Below the pieces are notes generated by a model. It was not told the origin of the DNA. It made no database searches and saw only the letters and a program-made list of their open reading frames with translations. This document shows positions 39,493 to 56,042 of a DNA stretch of 64,000 nucleotides, piece by piece; position 1 is the first letter of the stretch, and each line of letters starts with the position of its first letter. Source of the DNA: Syntrophales bacterium. Its GTDB lineage: Bacteria > Desulfobacterota > Syntrophia > Syntrophales > UBA6807. The translations under genes and the position numbers were made by a program. Location: positions 52,764 to 116,763 of the forward strand of contig JAXGPA010000007.1 in assembly GCA_040767195.1 (NCBI GenBank), read 5' to 3'.

Positions 39493-40899
<1,407 letters not shown>

Positions 40900-40900
40900 T

Positions 40901-41782
40901 TCAGGCCCGCTCCCCCGCCTTTCGGAGCAGGAGCTGCCAGTCCTCGTTCACCATGTCCTGGATGTGGTCCAGGTCCTCTTCCGTGAGGTGCTGGAACCGG
41001 CCCTGGAGGTGGAAGTATTCCTTCACGGGGAACTCCTTGGGCCGGTAGTTCAGGGTGTACCGGACGCCATCCTCCACCTCGTACAGGGGAAAGATGTTCG
41101 TCTGGACGGCCATCCGGGCGATCTTCACGGACATCTCCGAGGGAATCCGCCACCCCGTGGGACAGGTGGCGTAGATGTGGAGGAAGCGGGATCCCTTGAT
41201 GTCCCTGGCCTTCTTCACCTTGCGGACCAGATCCTCGGGAAAGGCGATGTTCGCCGTGGCGGCGTAGGGGATTCGGTGCGCCACCAGCGCCTCGACGATG
41301 TTCTTCTTCCGCATTTTCTTCCATTCCCGTCCCGGTGTCGTGGTCGTCCACGCGCCGTAAGGGGTCGAGGAACTCCGCTGGACCCCCGTGTTCATGTAGG
41401 CCTCGTTGTCGTAGCAGACGTAGATGAAGTCTTCGTTCCGCTCCACGGCGCCGGAGAGGGCCTGGAAGCCGATGTCGAAGGTCCCGCCGTCCCCCGCCCA
41501 GGTGACCACCGTGGTTTCCGTGTCGCCCTTGAGGTCCAGGGCCGCCCGGACGCCCGTCGCCACGGCGCCGCCCGTCTCGAAGGCGCTGTGGATCACCGGG
41601 ATCTTCAGGGTGGACTGGGGGTAGGGCCCGGCGATGACGGACCAGCAGCAGGCGGGAAGGACCATGATCACCCGGTCGCCCAGGGCCTTCAGGAGAAACC
41701 GCATGGCCACGGCGGCGCCGCACCCCGGGCAGGCCACGTGACCCGAATACATGAATTCCTGATCAAGAACATCAAGTTCCAT
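40901..41782 (-). CDS. porB: 2-oxoacid:acceptor oxidoreductase beta subunit (TPP-binding)
   Basis: ACPGCG, GDGGTFDIG, DNEAYMNTG and CPTGW motifs. Confidence 0.92.
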   Translation of the reverse strand: MELDVLDQEFMYSGHVACPGCGAAVAMRFLLKALGDRVIMVLPACCWSVIAGPYPQSTLKIPVIHSAFETGGAVATGVRAALDLKGDTETTVVTWAGDGGTFDIGFQALSGAVERNEDFIYVCYDNEAYMNTGVQRSSSTPYGAWTTTTPGREWKKMRKKNIVEALVAHRIPYAATANIAFPEDLVRKVKKARDIKGSRFLHIYATCPTGWRIPSEMSVKIARMAVQTNIFPLYEVEDGVRYTLNYRPKEFPVKEYFHLQGRFQHLTEEDLDHIQDMVNEDWQLLLRKAGERA

Positions 41783-42941
41783 GGGAGACCTCCTGGAGCC
41801 CCACCCAGAGGCTGTCCGCCTCGGGGAATTCCCGCTCTTTCGTTTTTTCGTATATCTCTTTCAGGGTGTCCGTCGTCACGTCCCGCCCGCCGATCCCGGC
41901 GATGAAGCCGAAAACGACGGGGCGGTTCCCTTCGTTGCACAGGGCCGCCCGGATCTCCTGGGCGAAGATGCCGCCCGCCCCGAAGGAGAAATTCCGGTCG
42001 ATGACGGCGATCTTTTTCGCCCCCTTCAGGCGGCGGCGGATCTCCTCCGCCGGGAAGGGGCGGAAAAGCCGCAGCTTCAGAAGGCCCGCCTTCTCCCCTT
42101 CCTTCCTCAAGTCTTCCACGACCTGGCGGCAGGTGCTTGTCACCGTTCCCGTCGTCACGAAGACGATGTCGCTGTCCTCGCAGTGGAAAGCCTCCATCGT
42201 CCCGTACCGCCTTCCGAAGAGGCTTTCGTACGCGCCTTCGATTTCCGGGTAAAGGCGGAGGGCTTCCTCCATGGCCTGGGCTATGTTGTGGCGCATTTCC
42301 ATGTACACGGCGGGCGTGACCAGGGGACCGAAAGCGCAGGGGTTTTCCGGGTCCGCCTGGAACCTGGGCGCGAAGGGGGGCAGAAACCGGTCGACCTCTT
42401 CCTGCTCCGGAACGTCCACCGGCTCGTAGGTGTGGGAGAGGAAGAAGGCGTCCAGGACGACCATGACGGGCAGGTTCACCGCCTCCCCGAGGCGGTAAGC
42501 CTGGATGACCGTGTCCAGGACTTCCTGGCCGCTTTCGCAGTAGAACTGGATCCATCCCGTGTCCCGCTGGGCGAGGCTGTCCGTCTGGTCGATCCAGATG
42601 TTCCATCCCGGGGCGAGGGCCCGGTTCACCTCGGCCATGACGATGGGAAGCCTCGCCCCCGACGTCCAGTGGAGAACCTCGTGCATCAGGGCGAGCCCCT
42701 GGCCGGAGGTGGCCGTGAAGACCCGGGCGCCGGCGGTGGCCGACCCGATGAGGGAGGCCAGGGCGGAATGCTCGCTTTCAACCCGGAGAAACCGGGCGTT
42801 CATCCGGCCCTGGGCGCAGAGTTCGGACAGGGTCTCGACGATGTGGGTCTGGGGGGTGATGGGGTAGGCGGAAATGACGCCGACCCGGGCCAACCGGACC
42901 GCTTCCGCCACGGCCTGGCTTCCTTCGAGGACGCGCTTCAT
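41772..42941 (-). CDS. porA: 2-oxoacid:acceptor oxidoreductase alpha subunit
   Basis: From ATG 42941: AYPITPQT, ESEHSA, TATSGQGL, NRALAP and RPFP motifs. Confidence 0.92.
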   Translation of the reverse strand: MKRVLEGSQAVAEAVRLARVGVISAYPITPQTHIVETLSELCAQGRMNARFLRVESEHSALASLIGSATAGARVFTATSGQGLALMHEVLHWTSGARLPIVMAEVNRALAPGWNIWIDQTDSLAQRDTGWIQFYCESGQEVLDTVIQAYRLGEAVNLPVMVVLDAFFLSHTYEPVDVPEQEEVDRFLPPFAPRFQADPENPCAFGPLVTPAVYMEMRHNIAQAMEEALRLYPEIEGAYESLFGRRYGTMEAFHCEDSDIVFVTTGTVTSTCRQVVEDLRKEGEKAGLLKLRLFRPFPAEEIRRRLKGAKKIAVIDRNFSFGAGGIFAQEIRAALCNEGNRPVVFGFIAGIGGRDVTTDTLKEIYEKTKEREFPEADSLWVGLQEVSHGT

Positions 42942-44695
42942 GGTTTTTCCTCCTCCAGTGTCATGGCGTTCCGGGGACACTCGACGACGCAGAGCCCGCA
43001 TCCCTTGCAGTAATCGTAATTGATGCGCCGGCCTTCCGCTCCGTCGCCGCGGATGACCGACATGTCGGGACAGAAGAAAAAGCAGTTGTCGCAATTGTTG
43101 CACAGCCCGCAGTTGAAACACCGATCCGCCTCCCGGATGGCCATGTTGGCCGAGATCTTCAGATCGATTTCCTCAAATCCGCGGATCCTTTCGTCGGCGA
43201 GAAGGCGGGGCTGGGAGATTCTCGGGGCGAGCTGGAAATAGTCGGCGTTGATTTCCCCGTAGCGGACCACGTGTCCGCTTCTCTTGGACCGGGCGCCGCC
43301 CTGGTAGATCTCCATGGACAGGGAAGGCCCGTCCCCCACCCGGAATTTTTCGAGGCGGCCGGGGAGATTTTCCGGTCCCCCCCGGAGGAGCAGGTCCAGG
43401 GCCATGGCGCCTTCCTTGGCTGAGGCCACGGCGTGGACCACCGATTTCACCGAGACCGCCAGGTCACCGCCGTAAATCAGAACAGGTGAGCCGTCCCCCA
43501 CGATGATGGTGCTGTTTGAAAGGGCGAGGACGGGTCCGCCCTTTCCCGGCGGCCGGTGCCAGTCTTCGGCGGCTTCCTCCCCGATGGCCTTGAACACCCG
43601 AGCGAATTCAAGGGTTTCCTCGGCGCCGTCGGGGACGACACGGGACCGCCCGTTGGAATCCGTTCCGTCGACCCGCATGGGCTGGACCGTCAGGGCCAGG
43701 CGGCCGCCTGTCCTTTCCAGCCTCACCGGGGCGAGGAGTTCCCGGATTTTGACCCCTTCCTCCAGGGCCATGAGAACTTCCGTTTCGAAGGCGGGCATGT
43801 CCCGCCGCCGCCGCCGGTAGACGATCCAGGGTTCGCCCCCGAGGCGGGCCACGGACCGGGCCACGTCCACGGCCGTGTTGCCGCCGCCGATGATGGCCAC
43901 GGGACCGTCCATTTTCGGGGTTTTCCCCCGCCGGATTCCCTGGAGAAAGGGCAGCCCTTCCGCCACGCCTTCCAGGTCCTCCCCGGGAATCCCCAGGGAC
44001 CGGGAACGGCCGTGGCCGCACCCGAGGAAGAGGGCGGCGTAGCGTCCCCGGGCCTCATCCACGAAGGCGGGTCCCAGGGGCCGTCCCGTGTGGATGGTGA
44101 CGCCCAGGCTCTCGATGAGGGCGATCTCGCTTCGAAGAACGTCGGGGGGGAGCCGGTAGGCGGGAATCCCCCAGCGGAGAATGCCGCCCGGTTCCTCCCG
44201 GGCCTCGAAGATTTCACACCGGTAACCGAGGCGGGTGAGAAACCAGGCCGCCGCCAGGCCGCTGGGTCCCGACCCGGCGATGGCGATTTTTTCCTCCCGT
44301 CTTTCCTCCCCGGTCATGACGGCGGGCTGAATCTCGTTTTTTCGGGCCGTATCGGCGAGAAACCGCTCGATCTGGTGAATGGCGATGGCTTCATCGAATT
44401 CCCCCCGGTTGCACTGGCTCTCGCAGGGGTGAAAACAGACCCGGCCGCACACGGCGGGGAAGGGGTTTTCCCGGAGGATCGTTTCCCAGGCTTCCTTGAA
44501 AAGGCCGTCACGGGTGAGGAGCTCTATTTTCCCGATGTCCTCGCCGGCGGGACAGGCGGCGCTGCAGGGGGCCGTCTTTTCCTCGTACCGTGGCTTCAGG
44601 TATCGCCAGGAACCCGTCTTGTTGGCTTCCGTGGACGTGCAGGTCTGGGGGATGAAAAGGGGAATCGGATCTGCAGAGGCTTTCTTCGTTTCCAT
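42938..44695 (-). CDS. PorD (delta)-GltD-like FAD/NAD(P) oxidoreductase fusion
   Basis: NKTGSWR, PCSAACP, CGRVCFHPCESQC, GSGPSG, GGGNTAVD motifs; C-terminal CxxCxxCxxCxxCxxxCP and CKGCGLCVVECP ferredoxin motifs; ATG 44695 with GAAAGGA RBS. Confidence 0.88.
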   Translation of the reverse strand: METKKASADPIPLFIPQTCTSTEANKTGSWRYLKPRYEEKTAPCSAACPAGEDIGKIELLTRDGLFKEAWETILRENPFPAVCGRVCFHPCESQCNRGEFDEAIAIHQIERFLADTARKNEIQPAVMTGEERREEKIAIAGSGPSGLAAAWFLTRLGYRCEIFEAREEPGGILRWGIPAYRLPPDVLRSEIALIESLGVTIHTGRPLGPAFVDEARGRYAALFLGCGHGRSRSLGIPGEDLEGVAEGLPFLQGIRRGKTPKMDGPVAIIGGGNTAVDVARSVARLGGEPWIVYRRRRRDMPAFETEVLMALEEGVKIRELLAPVRLERTGGRLALTVQPMRVDGTDSNGRSRVVPDGAEETLEFARVFKAIGEEAAEDWHRPPGKGGPVLALSNSTIIVGDGSPVLIYGGDLAVSVKSVVHAVASAKEGAMALDLLLRGGPENLPGRLEKFRVGDGPSLSMEIYQGGARSKRSGHVVRYGEINADYFQLAPRISQPRLLADERIRGFEEIDLKISANMAIREADRCFNCGLCNNCDNCFFFCPDMSVIRGDGAEGRRINYDYCKGCGLCVVECPRNAMTLEEEKP

Positions 44696-44754
44696 GATTC
44701 GTCCTTTCTCGAACCGGTCTCGAGGGGGCATGGTGCCGCCGGCGGAACCGCGGA

Positions 44755-45333
44755 TCACCCTGCCTCGGCCCGGGGAATCAATCCGATCATCCGGACCTCC
44801 CTGAAGGCGTCCCGGGCGGCACTGACGTTGTCTTCCGGCTTGATGAAGACTTCTTCCCTGATGGCTTCCTCGATGGCCTCCAGGGGAGGGATTCCGAGGA
44901 GCCGGGCAAAAGCGCCGATCATGGTTGTGTTCACGATGGGGTGGGTCCGGGTTCCCAGGCCGTGACGGGCGGCGATCCGGCTCGCGTCGATCCAGGCGAC
45001 ACGGAAGCCGGCGTAGCGGCCCGTTTCCTTCGGTGCGGCGGCGCTGTTCAGGAGAATCCAGCCGTTTTCCTTGAGACCCCGGGTGACGTCGATGCTGTTG
45101 AGAAGGGTGCTGTCCTGAACCAGGACGTGATCGGGCGCGTAAACGTTCGTTCGGAGCCGGACCGGTTTTTCGTCCAGCCGGAGGTAGGCCTCCACGGGGG
45201 CCCCCCGCCGCTCGACACCGAAGAAGGGAAAACTCTGGACCTGGAAGCCGGCCCGGAAAAAGGCCTTGGCCATGAGAATGGAGGCGACCACGGTGCCCTG
45301 GCCGCCCCGGCCGTGAAAGCGGATTTCAATCAT
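44755..45333 (-). CDS. porC: 2-oxoacid:acceptor oxidoreductase gamma subunit
   Basis: EIRFHGRGGQG, FGVERRGAPV and PIVNT motifs. Confidence 0.92.
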   Translation of the reverse strand: MIEIRFHGRGGQGTVVASILMAKAFFRAGFQVQSFPFFGVERRGAPVEAYLRLDEKPVRLRTNVYAPDHVLVQDSTLLNSIDVTRGLKENGWILLNSAAAPKETGRYAGFRVAWIDASRIAARHGLGTRTHPIVNTTMIGAFARLLGIPPLEAIEEAIREEVFIKPEDNVSAARDAFREVRMIGLIPRAEAG

Positions 45334-45418
45334 CCTTCCTCTCCTCAGGGTTTGCTCTGCCTGTAAAAGCAGGACGCCGGGGGAGCGGCCCGAAAAGGCC
45401 GTCCTCGTGCGCGGGTCA

Positions 45419-46021
45419 TCATGTGGACACGACGACGATGGCCTTCGCCGGGCCGTCCTCCAGGGAACGGAAACTGTGGTTGATGTCCGACTCGAAGTAG
45501 AGGCTGTCTCCCGGTTGAAGCACTTCGACCCGGTCGTCGGTCCTGAATTCGAGCGTCCCCTCCAGGAGGTAGAGGAACTCCTCGCCGGCGTGGTTCATGA
45601 AAACCATCCGGGAGACGTCCATGGGAAGGAATTCCACGAAAAGCGGCTCCATGCGCTTGTCCGCCTTTTTCATTTCCAGGGACTCGTAAATGTAGTCCAC
45701 TTCGCCTTCGTGATGGTGGGGGCGCTTCTGGAGCCGGATGCGATCGGCCTTCCGGTTCACGGCGATCTTGTCCGTCACGATCTCCTCTTCGAAAAAATAG
45801 GCCATGCCGACGTCGAGGGCCTTGGCCAGCTTGAGGAGCGTCGCCACGGGAGGGACGACGTCGCCCGCCTCGATTTCCTCGAGAAGGGATTTCTGGAGCC
45901 CCGTTTTCGTGACCATGTCGAGAAGGGTGTACCTCTTCTCCTTTCTCAACGCGCGAACCTTGCGGCCGACGTTGAATTCGGCCGATGCCGGCGGATCGGG
46001 AGAGCCTTTTTTTCGCGTCAT
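45419..46021 (-). CDS. XRE-family HTH regulator with cupin sensor domain
   Basis: N-terminal HTH (PPVATLLKLAKALDV); cupin HAGEEFLYLLEG...PGDSLYFESDINH. Confidence 0.92.
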   Translation of the reverse strand: MTRKKGSPDPPASAEFNVGRKVRALRKEKRYTLLDMVTKTGLQKSLLEEIEAGDVVPPVATLLKLAKALDVGMAYFFEEEIVTDKIAVNRKADRIRLQKRPHHHEGEVDYIYESLEMKKADKRMEPLFVEFLPMDVSRMVFMNHAGEEFLYLLEGTLEFRTDDRVEVLQPGDSLYFESDINHSFRSLEDGPAKAIVVVST

Positions 46022-46163
46022 GGGATCACCTCGAGTCGGGTTATTTGCTGCGGTCTCGATGACGGTGCGCGGTTACCGGCCTTGAGGGGGGGCGTGACGG
46101 GAGTCGGCGGGAACCTCCCGGGGAGAAAGGGGAACCAGGCCCGGTAACGAACGCCGTCCTTTT

Positions 46164-46211
46164 TAAAGAGACTCTTTATCGTTATCTAAACCCATTCCCG
46201 GTGGTTGTCAA
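46164..46211 (-). promoter_or_regulatory. Promoter of the XRE-por transcript with a 7-1-7 palindromic operator
   Basis: Minus strand TTGACA-17 nt-TAGATA (46211..46183); TAAAGAG-A-CTCTTTA at 46164-46178 over the predicted +1. Confidence 0.55.
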
Positions 46212-46293
46212 GGGATAGGGCGCGCCGCTGTTTCGACATCCCTCCCGGGCCGGAGGTTCATGGCCCCTGCCAGGGGCGGCGGGGAAAAATTAT

Positions 46294-46322
46294 TTGACTT
46301 TACGGCCCTTAGAGAGTACTTT
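46294..46322 (+). promoter_or_regulatory. Putative sigma70 promoter of the cstA operon
   Basis: TTGACT-17 nt-TACTTT. Confidence 0.5.
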
Positions 46323-46601
46323 TTTTTAAAAGTGAATCATTGCAGCGTTTCCAGGAGCTGTGATCCTGTACGGGAAACTTCAGCACGTAGTCGGTTGATC
46401 TATATGGTAACGCGCCCAGACGAATCTTTCTTTTCATATGGGGTCTTTTCACATGGGGCCCGGATGTTCCGCCCCGCATTCATGCTTCATCAAAACGACG
46501 GAGAATGGTTTTCGAGGGGGTTCCCCCCTTGCAAAAGACCTTTGGGTAGGGTCTTTCTTTGCCTTGCCGGAAACGAACGGTTTTAGAAAGGAGGTAAGAG
46601 C

Positions 46602-48344
46602 GTGACTACCCTTATTATCCTCATCGGTCTTGCGGTTTATGTCGTTCTGTATTTTACTTATGGGAAGAAACTGGAACGGGATGTGGTGGTGGCCACGGAC
46701 ACTAACGAAACGCCGTCGTCGCGGCTTTACGACGGCGTGGACTATATCCCCGCGAGAAAAGAAGTGCTTTTCGGGCATCATTTTTCCTCCATCGCGGGCG
46801 CGGCCCCCATCATCGGGCCGGCCCTGGCCATGGCCTGGGGATGGCTCCCCGGGCTCCTGTGGGTCTGGTTCGGAAACGTCTTCATCGGGGCCGTCCATGA
46901 CTACCTGGCCCTGGTCGCCTCGGTCCGCTACGACGGCCGGTCCATCCAGTTCGTGGCGTCCGACCTCATGGGAAAGCGGACGGGCACGGCCTTTTACTGG
47001 CTCGTCTTCTTCCTTCTCGTCCTTGTCGTGGCGGCCTTCGGCGCCGTTCTGGGGGGCATGTTCGTCAAGACCCCGGCCATCGCCTCGGCCTACATCTGGT
47101 CCATCGGCGCCGCCCTCATCCTGGGCGTCCTCATGTACCGGGTGAAGATGAACTTCACCGCGGCGACCCTCATCGGGATCGTCATGCTCGTCGCCTCCAT
47201 CATCCTGGGGGTCGAGTTCCCCATCGCGGCGACCTACGAGACGTGGATGTACGTCATGTTCTTCTACATCATCATCGCCGCGTCCATTCCCGTCAACGTC
47301 CTCCTTCAGCCCCGGGACTACCTGAACTCCTTCCTGCTCTACGCCGGTCTCATCCTCGGCCTTGCCGCGGCCGTTTTCGCCTTCCGGGGATTCGAAGTCC
47401 CCGCCTTCTCGGCTTTCGCCCCCGTCGTGGCGGGCGGGAAGGCCACGCCCTTCTGGCCGGCCATTCCGCTCATCATCGCCTGCGGGTCCCTGTCGGGGTT
47501 CCACTCCCTGGTGGCCTCGGGGACCACGTCGAAGCAGCTGGCCAAGGAAAGTGACGCCCTCTTCATCGGATACGGCTCCATGTTCACCGAGGGGTTCCTC
47601 TCCACGATCGTCGTCGTGGCCTGCGCGGGGTTCGGCTACACGGCCCTGCAGAACGCCGCAGCGGCCAAGGGGGTGGAGTTCACCCTCACCGCCGCCAACT
47701 GGGCCACCGACTTCACCCCCGTTTCCGGGAAACTGGGCCTTTCGGCGGTGAATCTCTTTGTCCAGTCCTACGCCGACATGGTGAACGCCACGTGGCTTGC
47801 CGTCATTCCCACGATCTACGTGAAGGTCGTCGCCGGGATGTGGGTCGCCGCCTTCGCCATGACGACCCTGGACACGACGAACCGCCTCGCCCGGTACTGC
47901 ATCTCCGAGATGGCCCTTCCCTTGAAGGGCACCTCCGAGGGCCTGTACAATTTCCTGACGAACCGGTGGGTGGCCTCCGTCATTCCGGCCTTCATCGGGA
48001 TCTACCTGGCCTACAGCAAGAACTTCACCATCCTGTGGCCCTCCTTCGGCGCGGCGAACCAGCTCATCGCCTCCATCGCCCTCATGACCGGGGCGTGCTA
48101 CGTCCACTCGAAGCTGAAATCCCGGTTCTGCAACATCGCCGTCATTCCCGCCTGGCTTCTCTGGGTGACGGTGACCGCCGCCCTGGTGTGGTTCATGGCC
48201 GTGGTTCTGCCCGGGAACATCGCCAAGGCGCCCGCCCAGGGATGGACCGTCATGGCCATCTCGGTGATCATGCTCATCATGAACTTCATTTTCATCACGG
48301 ACTTCGTCAGGAAGTACCGCCAGGAAATGGGGTCGTCCGAGTAA
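46602..48344 (+). CDS. cstA: Carbon starvation CstA-family transporter
   Basis: DGVDYIP, FGHHFSSIAGAAPIIGP, GAVHDY, LLQPRDY, IACGSLSGFHSL, TTLDT and WPSFGAANQL motifs; GTG start with AAGGAGG RBS. Confidence 0.95.
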   Translation: MTTLIILIGLAVYVVLYFTYGKKLERDVVVATDTNETPSSRLYDGVDYIPARKEVLFGHHFSSIAGAAPIIGPALAMAWGWLPGLLWVWFGNVFIGAVHDYLALVASVRYDGRSIQFVASDLMGKRTGTAFYWLVFFLLVLVVAAFGAVLGGMFVKTPAIASAYIWSIGAALILGVLMYRVKMNFTAATLIGIVMLVASIILGVEFPIAATYETWMYVMFFYIIIAASIPVNVLLQPRDYLNSFLLYAGLILGLAAAVFAFRGFEVPAFSAFAPVVAGGKATPFWPAIPLIIACGSLSGFHSLVASGTTSKQLAKESDALFIGYGSMFTEGFLSTIVVVACAGFGYTALQNAAAAKGVEFTLTAANWATDFTPVSGKLGLSAVNLFVQSYADMVNATWLAVIPTIYVKVVAGMWVAAFAMTTLDTTNRLARYCISEMALPLKGTSEGLYNFLTNRWVASVIPAFIGIYLAYSKNFTILWPSFGAANQLIASIALMTGACYVHSKLKSRFCNIAVIPAWLLWVTVTAALVWFMAVVLPGNIAKAPAQGWTVMAISVIMLIMNFIFITDFVRKYRQEMGSSE

Positions 48345-48352
48345 ACGTATGA

Positions 48353-48389
48353 CAGGGCGCGGGGGGTCGAACTCCCGCGCCCTGCTTTT
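48353..48389 (+). terminator. Intra-operon hairpin after cstA (partial terminator or mRNA stabiliser)
   Basis: CAGGGCGCGGG-10 nt-CCCGCGCCCTG followed by CTTTT. Confidence 0.6.
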
Positions 48390-48408
48390 CCGACCAACCG
48401 CTGCCCGC

Positions 48409-48690
48409 ATGAAATCGCCCGTATTCCGATTTCTCCGAGAATTACTGTCCCGTCTCCATGACAGCCACCGCGAGGACGCCGTGGCCCTGACCCACGTGGA
48501 GATGCAGGAGCTGGAAAACATTTTCGCTCTTCTCGTTCTCGGCTCTTTCGTCGGGCTCCCGGCCCCCCCGAGCTTTCTGGCCGTGGAGCTTCTCCCTTTC
48601 ATGGAAAGGGAACTCAAAATCATGAGCCGCCGGGCGGAAGACGCCGGGGACATGCTCGCCGAGATGTGCGGAACCCTGGGGATCGACTGA
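48409..48690 (+). CDS. Small CstA-associated membrane protein (cory-CC-star-like family, lacking the terminal CC)
   Basis: ELENIFALLVLGSFVGLPAPP...ELLPFM core; its TGA overlaps the next ATG (TGATG). Confidence 0.7.
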   Translation: MKSPVFRFLRELLSRLHDSHREDAVALTHVEMQELENIFALLVLGSFVGLPAPPSFLAVELLPFMERELKIMSRRAEDAGDMLAEMCGTLGID

Positions 48691-49625
48691 TGAAGATTCT
48701 TTTTTTCACCGGAAAGGGGGGCGTTGGAAAATCCACCATCGCCGCCGCGTCGGCCCGCCAGATTTCCCGCCGGGCCCGGGTGCTCGTCCAGTCCCTGGAC
48801 CCGGCCCACAACCTGGGGGACATTTTCGGGGTCCGCCTGGGAGACGGGAAGAAAAAGATCTCCGAGACCCTTTCCCTCCAGGAAGTGGATCTCCAGAAAC
48901 TGGCCCGGGAATACCTGGAACGGGAAACCCGGGTCCTCGGGGAGACATACCGGTATCTCCAGGTTCTCAACCTGGACAGTTACTTCTCCATCCTCAAGTA
49001 TTCCCCGGGCATCGAGGAGTACGCCCTTCTCACGAGCATCGAAAGGACGGTCAACGAGGAAACCGATTTCGACTATGTCATCTTCGACACGCCGCCCACG
49101 GGACTCACCCTGCGGTTTCTCGCCCTTCCCAGCGTGACCATCACGTGGGTCGACCGGCTCATCCTCATTCGGGAAAAAATTCTGGAAAAGCGGCACACCA
49201 TCCAGAAGATCCGCAGGCCCCTGAAGGAAGGGGAGATCCCCCGGGAGGAACGTTTGAAATACGATGCCGAAGACGACGCGATCCTGAAAAGGCTTCGCGA
49301 CTTCCGGGTGAATTACGAGCGCCTGAACGGCCTCCTCCAGGGCGCGACGTGCACCGTGGTTCTCGTTTTCAACCCCGACATGCTGTCCCTGCGGGAGTCC
49401 CAGAGGCTCGTGGAAGGTCTCCGGGAACTCCGGCTGCCCCTGCGCCTTCTCGTGAACAACAAGATCACCGACCGGAACCGGGACATGGCGGAGAAGGTCG
49501 AGGCCGCGATGAGAAACACGGCCCCGGGCGTCCCCGTGGAACAGGTTCCCCTGTCGGAAAGCCTTTACGAGGGAAATGAAACGGTCCTCTACCGGATCGC
49601 GAAAGACCTGGGAGACTGGTTCTGA
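48690..49625 (+). CDS. Single-domain ArsA/Get3 (TRC40)-family ATPase
   Basis: GKGGVGKST, SLDPAHNLGD, PGIEE, FDTPPTG and LLVNN motifs. Confidence 0.9.
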   Translation: MKILFFTGKGGVGKSTIAAASARQISRRARVLVQSLDPAHNLGDIFGVRLGDGKKKISETLSLQEVDLQKLAREYLERETRVLGETYRYLQVLNLDSYFSILKYSPGIEEYALLTSIERTVNEETDFDYVIFDTPPTGLTLRFLALPSVTITWVDRLILIREKILEKRHTIQKIRRPLKEGEIPREERLKYDAEDDAILKRLRDFRVNYERLNGLLQGATCTVVLVFNPDMLSLRESQRLVEGLRELRLPLRLLVNNKITDRNRDMAEKVEAAMRNTAPGVPVEQVPLSESLYEGNETVLYRIAKDLGDWF

Positions 49626-49627
49626 TC

Positions 49628-50311
49628 ATGTTTGACAACGAAGCCCTTCTGACCCAGCCCGTTTTTTATCTCTTCGTCGCTTTCAGCGCCCTCATCACCC
49701 TCGGTTTTTTCTGGGGGCGGAAAATGAACCGGCGGATTTTCAACGACGCCTTTCAGGATCTCGTGGACACGGTGAAGCCGGACGACCAGACCTTCACGGC
49801 TATCGGCGGGGTCGTGGGGTATCACGCCAACCTGCTCGTCGGCGGGAAAGGCCCCGTGTCCCGGGTGGACGGGACGATCACCCTCCTGCCCCGGCAGTCG
49901 TGGCTTTACATGCCCATTTCCAAGATCATCATGCGCCACGACCGCCTCTTCATCACCGTTTACCTGAGATCGGACATCCCCGGGGAGGGGCACCTCATCG
50001 AGAAGAGATACGCCGCTTTCCGGGGACCGAAGATCACCAACGCGGCAAAACTGGAAAAAGAAGCCCTGCGCTGGGGAAAACTGGATTTTTATCTCTACTA
50101 TGATAATCTGAAGATACGGGAAAGGTTTCTCGGCCATGTTTCGGACCACCCGGACCCCGGAACGGTCCGCCACATCGCCCTTATCCCGGGGGAGCGGAAG
50201 GGGTTTGTCTTCATGATTCCCAAAAGAGGCCGGGTAGGAGCGATGTTCCGTCCCGTTTACGAAATGATGGCGTCTTTGGCGGCCAGCCAGAAGAAAGGGA
50301 AACGTTCATGA
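49628..50311 (+). CDS. Single-TM membrane-anchored hypothetical protein (possible CCDC47/DUF1682-like fold)
   Basis: N-terminal TM followed by GRKMNRRI; ITLLPRQSWL...DRLFITV core; starts 2 nt after the ATPase stop and overlaps the next gene (ATGA). The fold call is tentative. Confidence 0.7.
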   Translation: MFDNEALLTQPVFYLFVAFSALITLGFFWGRKMNRRIFNDAFQDLVDTVKPDDQTFTAIGGVVGYHANLLVGGKGPVSRVDGTITLLPRQSWLYMPISKIIMRHDRLFITVYLRSDIPGEGHLIEKRYAAFRGPKITNAAKLEKEALRWGKLDFYLYYDNLKIRERFLGHVSDHPDPGTVRHIALIPGERKGFVFMIPKRGRVGAMFRPVYEMMASLAASQKKGKRS

Positions 50312-51225
50312 ATATCGCGATCTTTGGAATCGGCGGCGTGGGGGGGTATTACGGGGGTCTCCTGGCCCGCCGCTACGAAGGCGGGGAAACGCACCGGGTT
50401 TCCTTCGTGGCCCGGGGGGAACACCTTCGGATGATTCGGGAAAAGGGCCTGAAGGTGATCACCCAGGAAGGCGAATTCGTCGCCAGGCCGGTTGTGGCGA
50501 CGGACAGGCCGGAAAAGATCGGCCCTCTCGACCTCGTTCTCGTCACCGTCAAGGGATACGATCTCGACAGCGCCGCCCGGGCCCTCGCGGGCGTAACGGG
50601 AAAAGACACCGTCGTCATTCCCCTTCAGAACGGCGTGGATAACGCGGAACGCTTGAGGACCAGCGTGCCCGGGGGCCGGGTTATGAACGGGACGGTTTAC
50701 ATCTCGAGCCGCATCGTCGAGCCGGGGGTGGTCCAGCAACTCGGCGGGGCCTGCAGCCTTTTTTTCGGACCCGAGGAAGGAGACGTGGCGCCTTACCGGG
50801 AAATCGAGAGCCTCCTCCGGGACGCCGGGATCAAGGCCACTCTCTCCGGGGAAATCAGCAAGGAAGTGTGGAAAAAATTTCTCTTCATTTCGCCCGTGGC
50901 GGGCGCGACGGCCCTTTTCGACAAGCCCCTGGGGGGCGTGCTGGAAGACGGGGAGGCGTCCCGCCTTCTCGAGGGCATGATGACCGAGGTGGACCGGGTG
51001 GCCCGCGCAAAAGGGATCGACCTGCCCGGGGACGCCGTTTTGCAGGCCATGGAGACGGTGGCCCGGTTCCCCTACGAAACCAAAACGTCCTTCCAGGTGG
51101 ACGTGGAAAAGGGCAGGCGAACGGAAATCGAGACACTCATCGGGTACGTCATCCGAGCCGGCGAGTCCCTGGGGATCGACACACCCTTCAATCTCCGGGT
51201 GTACCAGGCTCTTTTGAAAAAATAG
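50308..51225 (+). CDS. Ketopantoate reductase (PanE/ApbA) family protein
   Basis: GIGGVGGYYG, VKGYD, PLQNG, WKKF and SFQVD..GRRTE motifs. Confidence 0.9.
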   Translation: MNIAIFGIGGVGGYYGGLLARRYEGGETHRVSFVARGEHLRMIREKGLKVITQEGEFVARPVVATDRPEKIGPLDLVLVTVKGYDLDSAARALAGVTGKDTVVIPLQNGVDNAERLRTSVPGGRVMNGTVYISSRIVEPGVVQQLGGACSLFFGPEEGDVAPYREIESLLRDAGIKATLSGEISKEVWKKFLFISPVAGATALFDKPLGGVLEDGEASRLLEGMMTEVDRVARAKGIDLPGDAVLQAMETVARFPYETKTSFQVDVEKGRRTEIETLIGYVIRAGESLGIDTPFNLRVYQALLKK

Positions 51226-51234
51226 AGGTGCCTC

Positions 51235-52227
51235 ATGGGGAAAGCGAAGGTTTTCGTGACACGGGTCATTCCCGAGGCCGGTCTCGGGAAAATCAGGGAA
51301 GCCTGCGATGCCCGGATCTGGGAGGGGCGCTTCCCCCCTCCCAGGGAGGTGCTTCTGGAGCAGGTTCGGGGAATGGACGGGATCCTGTCTCTCCTCAACG
51401 ACCGGATGGACGGCGCCGTCATGGACGCGGCAGGGGAACGCCTCAAAATCATAAGCAACTACGCCGTGGGATTCGACAACATCGATGTTCCCGCCGCGAC
51501 ATCCCGGGGGATCCTCGTGGGAAACACCCCGGGGGCCGTGACGGAGACCACGGCGGACCTGGCTTTCGCCCTCATCATGGCGGCGGCCCGGCGTCTCATG
51601 GAAGGCGTGGATTTCATCCGCGCAGGCCGATGGGAAACCTTTGAACCCCTTGTCCTTCTTGGGAGGGATGTCCACGGGGCCACCCTGGGGATCATCGGCA
51701 TGGGCAGGATCGGCCAGGCCGTCGCCCGAAGGGCCCGGGGCTTCGACATGGACATTATCTATTACCATCCCCGGGGCGAAACGGAAGCGGGCAGGGAAGC
51801 CGGCGCGACATGGTGCGGGTCGCTGGACGAGCTCCTCCAGCGGTCCGATTTCGTCAGCCTCCACGTGCCTCTCAACGATGAGACGAGGCACCTCATAGAC
51901 GAAGGGGCCCTTAAAAAAATGAAGCCGTCGGCTATCCTGGTCAACACGGCCCGAGGCGCCGTTGTGGACCCCGACGCTCTTTACCAGGCCCTCCGGGAGG
52001 GTGTCATCGCTTACGCCGCCCTGGACGTGACCGATCCTGAGCCCCTGCCGAAAGATCACAAGCTCATGGGGCTTCCCAACTGCCTCGTGGTGCCCCACGT
52101 GGGTAGCGCCTCCGTGGCGACCCGGGAGAGAATGGCCGTCATGGCGGCGGAAAACCTGATCGCCGCCGTTTACGGGGACATTCCCAGGTATGTCGTCAAT
52201 TCCGAGGTTTTGTCCCGCCGGCGGTAA
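51235..52227 (+). CDS. D-2-hydroxyacid dehydrogenase (glyoxylate/hydroxypyruvate reductase, GyaR-like)
   Basis: AVGFDNID, GMGRIG, NTARG, DVTDPEP and PHVGSA motifs. Confidence 0.92.
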   Translation: MGKAKVFVTRVIPEAGLGKIREACDARIWEGRFPPPREVLLEQVRGMDGILSLLNDRMDGAVMDAAGERLKIISNYAVGFDNIDVPAATSRGILVGNTPGAVTETTADLAFALIMAAARRLMEGVDFIRAGRWETFEPLVLLGRDVHGATLGIIGMGRIGQAVARRARGFDMDIIYYHPRGETEAGREAGATWCGSLDELLQRSDFVSLHVPLNDETRHLIDEGALKKMKPSAILVNTARGAVVDPDALYQALREGVIAYAALDVTDPEPLPKDHKLMGLPNCLVVPHVGSASVATRERMAVMAAENLIAAVYGDIPRYVVNSEVLSRRR

Positions 52228-52266
52228 CGGGAGCGTTAAAATCGTTTTTTACGAAAGGAGTCGGCT

Positions 52267-53379
52267 ATGGTGAAGCCGTATGAAGACCTGAATCCCCCCA
52301 GAAGGATCCTCATGGGGCCGGGACCGAGCGATGTGCCCGAAAGGGTCACGGCGGCCCTGGCGAGTCCCGTAGTGGGTCATCTCGACCCCGTCTTTCTTGC
52401 CATCATGGAAGAGGTTCAGGAGATGCTCCGGGCCGTCATGAGAACGAAAAACCGGTTCACCCTTCCCGTGTCCGGAACGGGAAGCGCCGGGATGGAAGCG
52501 GCCCTGGTGAACCTCCTGGAGCGGGGTGACAGGATCCTCGTGTGCGTGAACGGGGTTTTCGGGGAACGGATGTGCGACATCGCCGGGCGGTGCGGCGCGG
52601 AACTGAAACGGGTCGATGCCCCGTGGGGCACCCCCATAGACCCGGAGGCCGTTCGTCAGGCTCTCGCCGATTTCCCGGCGAAGCTCGTGGCCGTCGTCCA
52701 TGCGGAAACGTCAACGGGGGTTCTCCAGCCCCTGGAGGAACTGGCGAAGATATCCCGTGAAAAGGACGCCCTTTTTCTCGTGGATGCCGTGACGTCCCTC
52801 GCCGGCGCCCCCCTGGAAATCGATGCCTGGGGTATCGACGTCTGTTACTCGGGAACGCAGAAGTGCTTGAGCTGCCCGCCCGGCCTCGCTCCCATCACCT
52901 TCGGGCCGAGGGCCATGGAGGTCCTTGAAAAAAGAAAAACGAAGGTCCCCTCATGGTATCTTGACATGACCATGATCCTCAAATACTGGGGCCCGGACCG
53001 GGTGTACCACCACACGGCGCCCATCAGCATGACCTACGCCCTCCGGGAGGCCCTCCGCCTCGTTCTCGAGGAGGGGCTTGAGAGGCGCTGGGAAAGGCAC
53101 CAGGCCGTGCACCGCGTCCTTGTGGGCGGGCTTGAAAAGGCAGGGTTGAAAATGCTCGTGGCGGCACCGTACAGGGCGCCCATGATCAACACCGTGGTCC
53201 TTCCCGGGGGCGTGGATGACGCCGCCGTCCGCCGGAAACTCCTGGACGGGTACGGCATTGAAATCGGCGGCGGCCTGGGAGCCCTGAAAGGAAAGGTGTG
53301 GCGGATCGGCATCATGGGAGCGTCCTGCAGGGAAGATCATGTTGACACGCTTCTCTCCGCCTTGTCGGAACTTCTGTGA
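52267..53379 (+). CDS. Alanine-glyoxylate/serine-pyruvate aminotransferase (class V PLP)
   Basis: LMGPGPS, GTGSAGME, HAETSTG, SGTQKCLSCPPG and YHHTAP motifs. Confidence 0.93.
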   Translation: MVKPYEDLNPPRRILMGPGPSDVPERVTAALASPVVGHLDPVFLAIMEEVQEMLRAVMRTKNRFTLPVSGTGSAGMEAALVNLLERGDRILVCVNGVFGERMCDIAGRCGAELKRVDAPWGTPIDPEAVRQALADFPAKLVAVVHAETSTGVLQPLEELAKISREKDALFLVDAVTSLAGAPLEIDAWGIDVCYSGTQKCLSCPPGLAPITFGPRAMEVLEKRKTKVPSWYLDMTMILKYWGPDRVYHHTAPISMTYALREALRLVLEEGLERRWERHQAVHRVLVGGLEKAGLKMLVAAPYRAPMINTVVLPGGVDDAAVRRKLLDGYGIEIGGGLGALKGKVWRIGIMGASCREDHVDTLLSALSELL

Positions 53380-53431
53380 TGACCTTCTTAAAGTCGACAC
53401 GAGCGGAATTTCATGAAAGGAGGAAGCCGTA

Positions 53432-54529
53432 ATGAATCTGCTTTCCCTTGATGAAATCAAGGCATTGTCGGAAATTGAGGGCGGACTGTCCGTTTCCTTT
53501 TTCATGCCCACCCATCGCATGGGATCGGAAACGCAGCAGAACCAGATCCGGTTCAAGAACCTTTTGAAAAAGGCGGAGGAGGAACTGGTCCGCAACGGAA
53601 TGCGAAGTGCCGACACGAGGGACTTTCTAAAACCGGCACAGGATCTTCTCAACGATCTCCCCTTCTGGCGGAACCAAAGAGACGGGCTTTCGGCGTTTCT
53701 TTCCCCGGGATACTGGGGGTACTTCAGGCTCCCCGTAGACTTCAGCGAACTTCTCGTCGTTTCCGACCGTTTCCACCTGAAGCCCCTGGTGCCCATGCTG
53801 AGCGGGAACGTGCGTTTCTATATTCTGGCGCTCAGCCTGAATCATATACGGGTCATCGCCTGCACCCGTTTCAGCGCGTCATCCGTGGAGATTGCAGACC
53901 TTCCCGAGAACATGCAGGCGGCTCTCAACCTCGACGATTTCCAGAAACGCCTCCAGCGCCACGTGGGGACGGAAGACATGAAAAGCAAGATACTGCTCTA
54001 TTTTCAGGAGGTGGACCGGGCGCTCCGCCCCTTTTTCCGGGACAGGAAGGAACCCCTGCTTTTCGCGGGGGTGGACTATCTCTTCCCCCTCTACCGGGAA
54101 GCCAACACGTATGCCCACCTGTATCCCCAGGCCCTCACGGGAAACCCCGAGGAATTGAGCGAGGAGGAACTGCTCGAAGATGCCTGGCCCGTCGTGGAGC
54201 CCTTTTTTGAGAAAGAGCGGGTCAAGGTCCTGGAACAGTTTTACGATTTTTACGGAACGGGCCGGGCATCCTCCGACCTGGAGGACGTGGTCAAGGCAGC
54301 CGCCCATGCCCGGGTCGCCGCCCTGTTCGTCGCCCTGGGCGTTCAGAAGTGGGGCTATTACGATTCCGAAAAGGACCGGGTGGTCATGAGCCGCGAAGCG
54401 CGGTCGGGAACCCGCGATCTCCTTGACTTCGCCACGATTGAAACGCTGGCGAACGGTGGGGTCGTTTACGCCGTCTCCCCGCCGGAGGTGCCGGAAAAGG
54501 CTCCCCTGGCGGCTGTTTTTCGTTATTGA
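53432..54529 (+). CDS. Bacterial archaeo-eukaryotic release factor (baeRF3/7)-like protein
   Basis: VSFFMPTHR, IRFKNLL, RFHLKPL, FYILALS, PLLFAG, GNPE motifs; C-terminal AAVFRY. Confidence 0.8.
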   Translation: MNLLSLDEIKALSEIEGGLSVSFFMPTHRMGSETQQNQIRFKNLLKKAEEELVRNGMRSADTRDFLKPAQDLLNDLPFWRNQRDGLSAFLSPGYWGYFRLPVDFSELLVVSDRFHLKPLVPMLSGNVRFYILALSLNHIRVIACTRFSASSVEIADLPENMQAALNLDDFQKRLQRHVGTEDMKSKILLYFQEVDRALRPFFRDRKEPLLFAGVDYLFPLYREANTYAHLYPQALTGNPEELSEEELLEDAWPVVEPFFEKERVKVLEQFYDFYGTGRASSDLEDVVKAAAHARVAALFVALGVQKWGYYDSEKDRVVMSREARSGTRDLLDFATIETLANGGVVYAVSPPEVPEKAPLAAVFRY

Positions 54530-54620
54530 GGGAAAAAGATCAAAGACAGCGACGAGATTTGAAACAGGGGTGCGGGAGAAACGGGACCCGTTTTGACGGC
54601 CCCCTGTTCGGAGGAGATGC

Positions 54621-55832
54621 ATGGCCATAAAGGAGAACCTTTTCAGCAAATCGAACGAAGCCCTGCTCCGGCGTCTTATCCCCGATTATGAAAGAACGGA
54701 CGATCATCATATCCGTATTCGTTACGGGGTTGTCGCCGGCTGGATATCCATTTTCTTTACCCTGGCGCTTTTTTTAGTCAAGGCCGTCCTGGCCTGGCTT
54801 GCCGGTTCCATCTCCATCCTGGCCGACGCCTTTCACCTTCTTTCCCACCTGGCCAACTCGGTCGTCCTCGTTTTCAGTTTCTGGATGGCCTCCCGGCCCG
54901 CCACGGCGGAGACCCCTTTCGGCCATGGCCGTATGGAGCACGTGGCGCCTCTCATCATGTCCATTTTTCTCTTCGTTTCGGGGATCCAGATCGCTGAAAA
55001 ATCATTCCACCAGGCCCTTCATCCCGGTGCCGTTCACTACTGGCCGCTTCTTCCCTGGATCCTCTTTCTCACCATCCTGGTCAAACAGTGGCTCGCCCAG
55101 TTCGTCCGGTACCTGGGCGGCCGGGTCCACTCCCACGCCATCCTGACGAACGCCTTTCATCACCGGATCGAAGCCGTCGTGACGGTCACGGTCATCGTGG
55201 GTCTCGTGGCGGGTCATCACTTCGAAAGACCCGAGTTTGACGGGTACATCGGCGTCCTGGCGGCCCTCTGGATCCTCTATCTCGGCTATCAGCACGGCCG
55301 GGAGGCCATCGTGCCCATCCTGGGCAAGGCGCCGACACGGGAACTCATCGAGTCCATCCGGGAGACGGCCCGCTCGGTGGATCATGTCGAGGATGTCCAC
55401 GAGATCATCGTCCACGATTACGGCAACATGTACATCATGACCCTCCACGTGGAGGTTCCGGAGAAGCTGGGCTGCGACAGCATGCACGGAATCGCTGAAA
55501 AGTGCGAGGCCCGGTTGAGAAAGCGGTTCGGCGGGGAAGTGGTCTGCCACACCGACCCGCTCATGGAACTGACCCCGGAACTGCGGGTCCTGGAGCACCG
55601 GTTCCGGGAGGTGGTGGACAAGATGCCGGAAGTCTTTTCTTATCACGACTTCCGCCTGATCGCCTCGTCTCCGGGCCGCTACATCATTGTCGCCGACATC
55701 GACGCTGCCGAGGAGGTCCCCGAAAGGCGATTCACCGAAATAACCGGGGAACTGGAGAGGCGGGTCCTCGCAGCTCTGCCCGAGGTGGATTACTGCAGTT
55801 TTTACGTGACGCCGAAGTTCGCCTATTCGTAA
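54621..55832 (+). CDS. Cation diffusion facilitator transporter with duplicated C-terminal domain
   Basis: SISILADAFH, PFGHGRME and VHEIIVHDYG motifs, plus a second YHDFRL domain. Confidence 0.9.
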   Translation: MAIKENLFSKSNEALLRRLIPDYERTDDHHIRIRYGVVAGWISIFFTLALFLVKAVLAWLAGSISILADAFHLLSHLANSVVLVFSFWMASRPATAETPFGHGRMEHVAPLIMSIFLFVSGIQIAEKSFHQALHPGAVHYWPLLPWILFLTILVKQWLAQFVRYLGGRVHSHAILTNAFHHRIEAVVTVTVIVGLVAGHHFERPEFDGYIGVLAALWILYLGYQHGREAIVPILGKAPTRELIESIRETARSVDHVEDVHEIIVHDYGNMYIMTLHVEVPEKLGCDSMHGIAEKCEARLRKRFGGEVVCHTDPLMELTPELRVLEHRFREVVDKMPEVFSYHDFRLIASSPGRYIIVADIDAAEEVPERRFTEITGELERRVLAALPEVDYCSFYVTPKFAYS

Positions 55833-56042
55833 AAGAGGGGAACTTTCCCCGGCTTTTTTTCACGGAATCGCCATCTCGAACCCTCTGAAGCGGGGCGGTC
55901 CTCTTTCAGTGAGACTCCGGGGACCATCCCGTTCATTCTGTCTGCGTCGCCGTTTTCGTGGAGAAAATAAAAATGATTGATTAAAAGACCCGTTTCCGGT
56001 AGAGGGAAACCCGTCTTCAGGAAAAAAACAGGAGTGTTTTCC

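Follow-up and report, generated by a model that had tools for sequence, protein, structure and literature searches.

The window analysed here, a 64,000-nt stretch of DNA from a Syntrophales bacterium to whose positions all coordinates refer, carries a four-gene operon in which a gene for a CstA-family transporter is followed by three others, the last of which, cstY, is predicted to encode a latch-less protein of the CCDC47/TtfA fold. This modelled structural identity of CstY, together with its bacterial range, is what is new; the operon itself is real, widely conserved and already described, and the window holds a bacterial member of it. We give a probability of about 40% to the reading that CstA and its three co-inherited helpers constitute a private system for post-translational assembly or activation. 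All on the plus strand, the genes are cstA (46602..48344; 580 aa, GTG start), encoding the multipass transporter (PF02554, E 3e-127); cstX (48409..48690; 93 aa), belonging to DUF7990 (PF25952); the gene for a single-domain SIMIBI ATPase of the Get3/ArsA fold (48690..49625; 311 aa; PF02374, E 3e-51); and cstY (49628..50311; 227 aa), whose product has an N-terminal hydrophobic helix and a predicted CCDC47-type core. The cstX stop codon (48688-48690) overlaps the ATG of the ATPase gene by one base (48690) within a TGATG at 48688-48692, and 2 nt (49626-49627) separate the ATPase gene from cstY. These open reading frames, their overlap and gap, and the motifs and single cysteine of the ATPase are found in the sequence and translations just as an earlier annotation made from the DNA alone (the original prediction) had described them.

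The module as such is not undescribed. Castillo & Saier 2010 (PMC2963123), in the text available, report operons of cstA, a ~90-aa CstX and a single-domain, Cys-less ArsA homologue of ~330 aa (ArsA cluster 14), with a ~210-aa CstY of a single transmembrane (TM) segment in five archaea only, for which that text gives no family. The window operon corresponds to this cluster in every component, with the same four proteins and sizes. Unlike the CstY of 2010, the present one is bacterial, occurs in 66 of 151 genomes of one order and has a predicted CCDC47 fold; its identity with the 2010 protein is judged by its size, its topology, the gene context and the archaeal members of the family, and not by sequence comparison.

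The resemblance of the fourth protein to CCDC47/DUF1682, noted in the original prediction, is borne out by both a sequence profile and a structure match. The top sequence match of the window CstY (P0004) is the Pfam CCDC47 family PF07946, whose profile positions 7-123 align with its residues 15-115 at E 0.0013; at 18.4 bits the match falls short of the gathering score, 27.7 bits. This profile is matched by 102 of 115 close CstY homologues at E <=0.1, the best member reaching E 2.9e-5, and by 29 of 127 diverse homologues at E <=0.01, these being related sequences rather than independent ones; in the controls, weak matches in B. subtilis and C. glutamicum at E <=1 were uninformative. A fungal CCDC47 cluster at 0.80 in the ESM Atlas serves as a lead only. 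Since searches of PDB sequences with P0004, A1 and A2 as queries returned no CCDC47 chain, the sequence support comes from the Pfam profile only; an NCBIfam scan of the 127 members gave nothing but single scattered matches.

Structural comparison points the same way. A template-free AlphaFold2 (AF2) model of CstY built from 127 prokaryotic sequences has a predicted local distance difference test (pLDDT) score of 96.3, and the Foldseek comparison with CCDC47 that had been proposed as a check ranks CCDC47-type chains first, the top three matches being multipass-translocon chains (E 4e-8, 1e-7 and 8e-4). In a repeated search of 48,161 chains made without Foldseek, the model aligns with 7tut_4 at Z 16.7 and a root-mean-square deviation (rmsd) of 3.2 Å over 209 of its 227 residues, transmembrane helix included, with 9i78_4 at Z 15.2 (rmsd 3.4, 209 residues) and with TtfA (6t84) at Z 10.2 (rmsd 4.4, 156 residues), while the next unrelated structure scores Z 6.5 and below. 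The search leaves the 7tut, 9i78 and 6w6l chains unnamed, and we take them for CCDC47 from their residue ranges, because that of 9i78 (76-370) is the CCDC47 rigid body of PMC12572126 and that of 6w6l lacks the membrane part, as PMC7505659 states. The aligned span of ctCCDC47 is 76-370, and the alignment ends at residue 370 of that protein, or 397 of the mammalian one. In fungal CCDC47, residues 371-447 form the latch helices, which brace Sec61 and enter the ribosome exit (PMC12572126); CstY ends where the latch begins, and is thus a latch-less core. Since structure and topology agree with a sequence signal, though a weak one, CstY and CCDC47 very probably share a common ancestor.

CCDC47 (PF07946; PDB 7TUT/7TM3, 9I78, 6W6L) and the modelled CstY share the succession of an N-proximal transmembrane helix and a cytosolic globular domain, yet CstY has neither a luminal domain nor a C-terminal latch, is only 8-13% identical, and is tied to one transporter, unlike the CCDC47 of the eukaryotic PAT complex. 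It may work in the manner of a transporter-side chaperone; lacking the latch and falling under the Pfam threshold, it is not a PAT member, and the CCDC47-type function first suggested for it is not supported as stated, the missing latch helices being those that carry the known translocon function of CCDC47. For Asterix, the PAT partner of CCDC47, we identified no counterpart, the CstX profile having no significant match in the PDB and the genome not having been searched for Asterix. TtfA likewise combines an N-terminal anchor with a cytoplasmic domain of similar predicted fold, and it binds the multipass transporter MmpL3, for whose transport it is needed (PMC6593404). It is nonetheless a weaker structural match to CstY than CCDC47, and no sequence-level TtfA match was obtained for CstY in NCBIfam or PDB searches; moreover, TtfA is essential, partners an RND lipid transporter and follows the distribution of mycolate producers, whereas CstY is found beside cstA in Syntrophales-like bacteria and in archaea.

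A profile search for CstY returned 240 cluster representatives at E <=0.001; of the 150 listed, most of the full-length ones measure 200-235 aa, and a weak search found no longer or fused forms. Named members come from Crenarchaeota, Acidilobaceae, TA06, WOR-3, Bacteroidota and Spirochaetales, and the close homologues from Syntrophales and other deltaproteobacterial records; a quick tree has weak deep support and was not used to assign a direction of transfer. Castillo & Saier 2010 is the only work on cstX or cstY among the relevant papers found, and none of these ties CstY or TtfA to CCDC47, some supplements that may bear on novelty being unexamined. The available portions of PMC11186639, PMC13261788 and PMC7616256 do not mention prokaryotic CCDC47, nor do the main texts of 10.64898/2026.10.28.762692 and 10.1101/2020.10.19.343400 mention CCDC47, though their supplements may bear on novelty, and PMC9630114 (2022, Nature), as far as its available text goes, describes prokaryotes as without PAT components. 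A CCDC47 fold in prokaryotes is nevertheless not wholly new, since supplementary file 3 of PMC12962969 (2026) lists three Asgard groups, cog.009255, cog.009962 and cog.005419, as CCDC47-like, crediting Liu et al. 2021; these proteins, known only as table rows, match CCDC47 structurally over ~230-245 residues.

The ATPase has the motifs KGGVGKST, DPAHN and DTPPTG, and with one Cys in its 311 residues it has neither the ArsA metalloid cysteines nor a CxxC, as predicted. Its assignment as Get3-like rather than ArsA-like also stands: it passes the TRC40/GET3/ArsA model TIGR00345 (171 bits, cut-off 135) and misses the arsenical-pump model TIGR04291 (92 bits, cut-off 650), and its AF2 model (pLDDT 87.8), which has a 34-residue helix at 137-170 (the long helix 7) and a linker of TRC40-insert size, is closest to archaeal TRC40/Get3 (3zq6 and 3ug7, Foldseek E 5e-20), the first ArsA structure ranking 36. 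It aligns across helix 7, insert and helix 9 with the archaeal Get3 structures 3ug6 and 3zq6, and conservation here follows an amphipathic pattern. The pump ATPase ArsA has two tandem domains, metalloid cysteines and an ars operon, none of which applies here. A single domain, a groove and no CxxC are features shared with the prokaryotic Get3/TRC40-like Groups 9 and 10 of Farkas et al. 2019 (PMC6593721), as are the long helix 7, the insert-length linker and the lack of an alpha-crystallin domain, and Table 1 of that paper gives several prokaryotic Get3-like groups without CxxC. By these criteria, and not by a tree, the protein is a groove-bearing, CxxC-less Get3-like ATPase and not ArsA.

Conservation was assessed over 75 operon-linked ATPases, that of the window and those of 74 loci, with starts chosen by a script. 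CxxC occurs in 1 of the 75, and 45 have 0-1 Cys. The P-loop and switch I, like DTPPTG, are invariant or almost so, and on the groove-lining helices there is no variation at Y87, N94, L95, W153, L157 or R161, with R168 conserved at 96%. Compared with the Get3-like groups of PMC6593721, the groove is unusually invariant, Met-poor and basic-rimmed, and such conservation suggests one fixed client. The obvious candidate is CstX, which has invariant glutamates on either side of its Gly/Pro-broken hydrophobic segment; a charge match between its acidic residues and the basic groove rim is possible.

CstX falls in PF25952 (score 0.98, ESM Atlas clusters) and matches NF041419 (cory-CC-star) weakly, under the cut-off (E 6.8e-6). 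It comprises an amphipathic N-terminus, a conserved acidic patch, the hydrophobic segment and a C-terminal helix, with E31, E34, F39, G49, E68 and D81 invariant in an alignment of 75 rows. The single hydrophobic segment noted at the outset is present at about residues 38-62, but it is interrupted by conserved Gly/Pro and followed by ~30 residues; CstX is therefore not a plain, classical tail anchor, and the segment is probably hairpin-shaped. A search of the CstX profile against the PDB gave no significant match to any solved chain. The window CstA, for its part, is not an equivalog of E. coli CstA (NF011590, 224 bits against a cut-off of 1188), and a sequence-profile search found no solved relative of it.

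Conserved linkage of the four genes, a further element of the original prediction, emerges from two neighbourhood surveys. The first took the best 80 of 241 cstY matches in GTDB, setting aside 10 with <1,800 nt upstream; by hand count, cstA, cstX and the ATPase gene lie beside cstY in 69 of the remaining 70 loci (exception L033). The second comprised 75 partly redundant metagenome loci, 25-59% identical to a query of archaeal type. In 48 of them the upstream sequence reaches 2,300 nt or more, and here cstX and the ATPase gene are present in 48/48 and cstA in 47/48, so that 47 have all partners. In 5 metagenome loci cstA is on the opposite strand yet adjacent, and L170, L173 and L174, which belong to the 27 shorter loci, have no ATPase gene in the 700-1,150 nt upstream. 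Archaeal loci L114, flanked by the ribosomal proteins S26e and S25e, and L129 have the same cstA-cstX-ATPase-cstY content. Of the order's 151 genomes, 66 have cstY and 66 have cstX, 65 having both and 84 neither, and across 301 genomes of the phylum cstY is found in 14 and cstX-like genes in 52. With 14 of 301 genomes positive, cstY is a dedicated gene and not a housekeeping one. The full gene order is present in 9 of 12 regions around the phylum cstY matches, the exceptions being L106, L098 and L099, and of 40 regions around other cstX matches 26 have cstA-cstX followed by two ATPase genes, 3 have cstA-cstX with one and 1 has all four genes. CstY is thus nearly always accompanied by the module, and the module is often without detectable CstY.

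Several variants were seen in the same surveys. Within the phylum the single-ATPase form is less common than the cstA-cstX(-cstX)-ATPase-ATPase arrangement (26 loci, L218-L250), which is similar to cluster 15 of PMC2963123 and suggests an ATPase heterodimer. Orphan CstX-like genes are DUF7990-like (L235:4240-6655, L254:548-2785, L244:6154-6942, L251:5852-6587), 2 of 10 such loci having them directly after feoA-feoB and 2 beside nikR and metal-transport genes. Tandem duplications of cstY occur at L133:6010-7342, L139 and L072 and in genomes G302, G303, G338 and G431, and tandem copies of cstA at L012. Between amtB-glnK and a baeRF gene (L258:2459-6263) lies a cstY copy whose C-terminus is apparently frameshifted, likely the relic of a deleted operon. 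Finally, a divergent cstY-like gene with 3 database relatives follows an MFS transporter gene at L098:3382-10292 and L099:4555-6608 (hhalign 67%, E 5e-5); it stands alone at L099, and L098 also has a second cstX and converges on a cstA-cstX-ATPase-ATPase cluster.

In a private assembly or activation system of the kind we favour, a dimer of the Get3-like ATPase would bind CstX by its hydrophobic segment, which would lie in the groove, and in an ATP cycle would put CstX onto CstA or take it off; CstY would be a membrane-anchored dock on CstA, as TtfA is on MmpL3 (PMC6593404), and transport by CstA itself would stay ion-driven. A link between CstY and CstA in particular is indicated by L106, where cstY comes immediately after cstA, 10.5 kb contain neither cstX nor an ATPase gene and the genome gave no cstX match, and by Hyperthermus, which has cstA, cstX and cstY without arsA (PMC2963123). 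The need of E. coli CstA for its small neighbour YbdD (PMC5847655) offers a loose precedent. Against this proposal stand a number of observations. No cstY match was obtained in 3/3 single-ATPase and 26/26 two-ATPase loci among L215-L254, a count that profile sensitivity may limit, and CstY is dispensable in many CstA-CstX-ATPase systems. The cstX-like genes lie away from cstA in 10 of the 40 cstX regions, as does cstY at L033/L257, L255, L258 and L099, and L130 reads cstX-ATPase-cstY with no cstA in 1.5 kb upstream. The groove, with 0-1 Met in 41 of 75 ATPases and a basic rim, is unlike that of a typical tail-anchor carrier. A common fold is no proof of a common function, and every interaction in the scheme, like the direction of the ATP cycle, is one that we infer. 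In a broader form, which we put forward only tentatively and with the odds against it, CstY would be a living minimal CCDC47 of the ancestral type, forming with CstX and the Get3-like ATPase a private GET/PAT-like membrane chaperone, bacterial and archaeal, for one multipass client; CCDC47, CstY and TtfA would make up one superfamily of transporter-side chaperones, and eukaryotes would have generalised theirs by adding the ribosome latch.

The explanation of Castillo & Saier 2010, by which ATP hydrolysis drives transport by CstA, CstX acting as the linker and CstY being an optional subunit, after the manner of ArsA-ArsB, appears unlikely in the light of these data. It agrees with the tight gene linkage, with the intact and (near-)invariant P-loop, switch I and DTPPTG, and with the co-evolving trees of CstA, CstX and the ArsA homologue in PMC2963123, and primary active uptake would suit energy-starved anaerobes. 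Yet the ATPase is structurally nearer Get3/TRC40 than ArsA and keeps the long groove helix, the reference member of NF011590 carries the name pyruvate/proton symporter, E. coli CstA works with YbdD (PMC5847655), and the ATPase is absent from the related operons of L106 and Hyperthermus (PMC2963123). Doubtful too is a gate responding to energy state, in which the ATPase, as a nucleotide sensor docking on or sequestering CstX, would switch finished CstA on and off with no part in its assembly. A fixed, conserved client surface, the small CstX with its amphipathic N-terminus and acidic patch, and accessory genes that are optional across genomes would all fit such a gate, but it leaves no role for a CCDC47-fold CstY that co-occurs with cstX in 65 of the 67 positive genomes of the order.

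A co-translational role, with CstY at SecY and the ribosome like CCDC47 and CstX in the place of Asterix, chaperoning the helices of CstA during synthesis, looks quite improbable. The predicted match of CstY to the transmembrane and globular domains of CCDC47 over its whole length, the PF07946 matches of its homologues and the contact that the CCDC47 globular domain itself makes with the ribosome (PMC7505659) speak for it; against it, CstY stops at the start of the latch (ctCCDC47 370; latch 371-447) in a family of ~200-235 aa for which the weak search found no longer form, CstX matched no solved chain, and the distribution of cstY is patchy (14/301 phylum genomes). Metalloid or metal handling, with the ATPase as an As/Sb-activated pump driver or metal chaperone, is highly improbable despite its PF02374 membership and the CstX-like genes that, among 10 orphan loci, adjoin feoB twice and nikR twice, given a single-domain protein in a set with 0-1 Cys in 45/75 and CxxC in 1/75, a TIGR04291 score far under the cut-off, no ars genes among the open reading frames at 40000-56000 and no arsR in the cstA-cstX-arsA-cstY operons described in the available text of PMC2963123.

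Around the operon, the run of coupled genes extends beyond 50311 into a ketopantoate-reductase gene that overlaps cstY by 4 nt and is outside the conserved module. On the same strand at 50308-54529, it is followed by genes for a 2-hydroxyacid dehydrogenase, a class V aminotransferase and a baeRF family 3 protein, an arrangement that loci L130 and L258 repeat in part and the archaeal loci do not. These downstream genes may be a hint that the substrate is a 2-oxo-acid or glyoxylate/serine. Upstream of cstA (39610-46021) lie an enolase gene, genes for a 2-oxoacid:ferredoxin oxidoreductase set of four subunits and, on the minus strand at 45419-46021, that for a divergent XRE-cupin regulator, the last two of which may share a 2-oxo-acid theme. 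A hairpin with a U-rich tail is present at 46534-46566, ~45 nt 5' of the cstA start; as a riboswitch or attenuator the cstA leader was rejected, with no notable Rfam match, a folding z of -1.0, no conservation in 10 leaders and a terminator count equal to chance. Contigs from RNA libraries of two studies cover all four genes, and cstA-cstX-ATPase is bridged in three runs of one study; the flanks are covered too, and with neither strand nor level shown these contigs do not amount to co-transcription. A plasmid search gave no match.

That bacteria and archaea have a family of proteins with the CCDC47 core, tied structurally to TtfA, an essential factor of mycobacteria, bears on the origin of the multipass translocon and on the role of the CCDC47 globular domain apart from the latch. 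The four-gene, single-client system also gives a prokaryotic Get3-like ATPase a candidate client in CstX, and makes the hypothesis of 2010 directly testable by heterologous expression.

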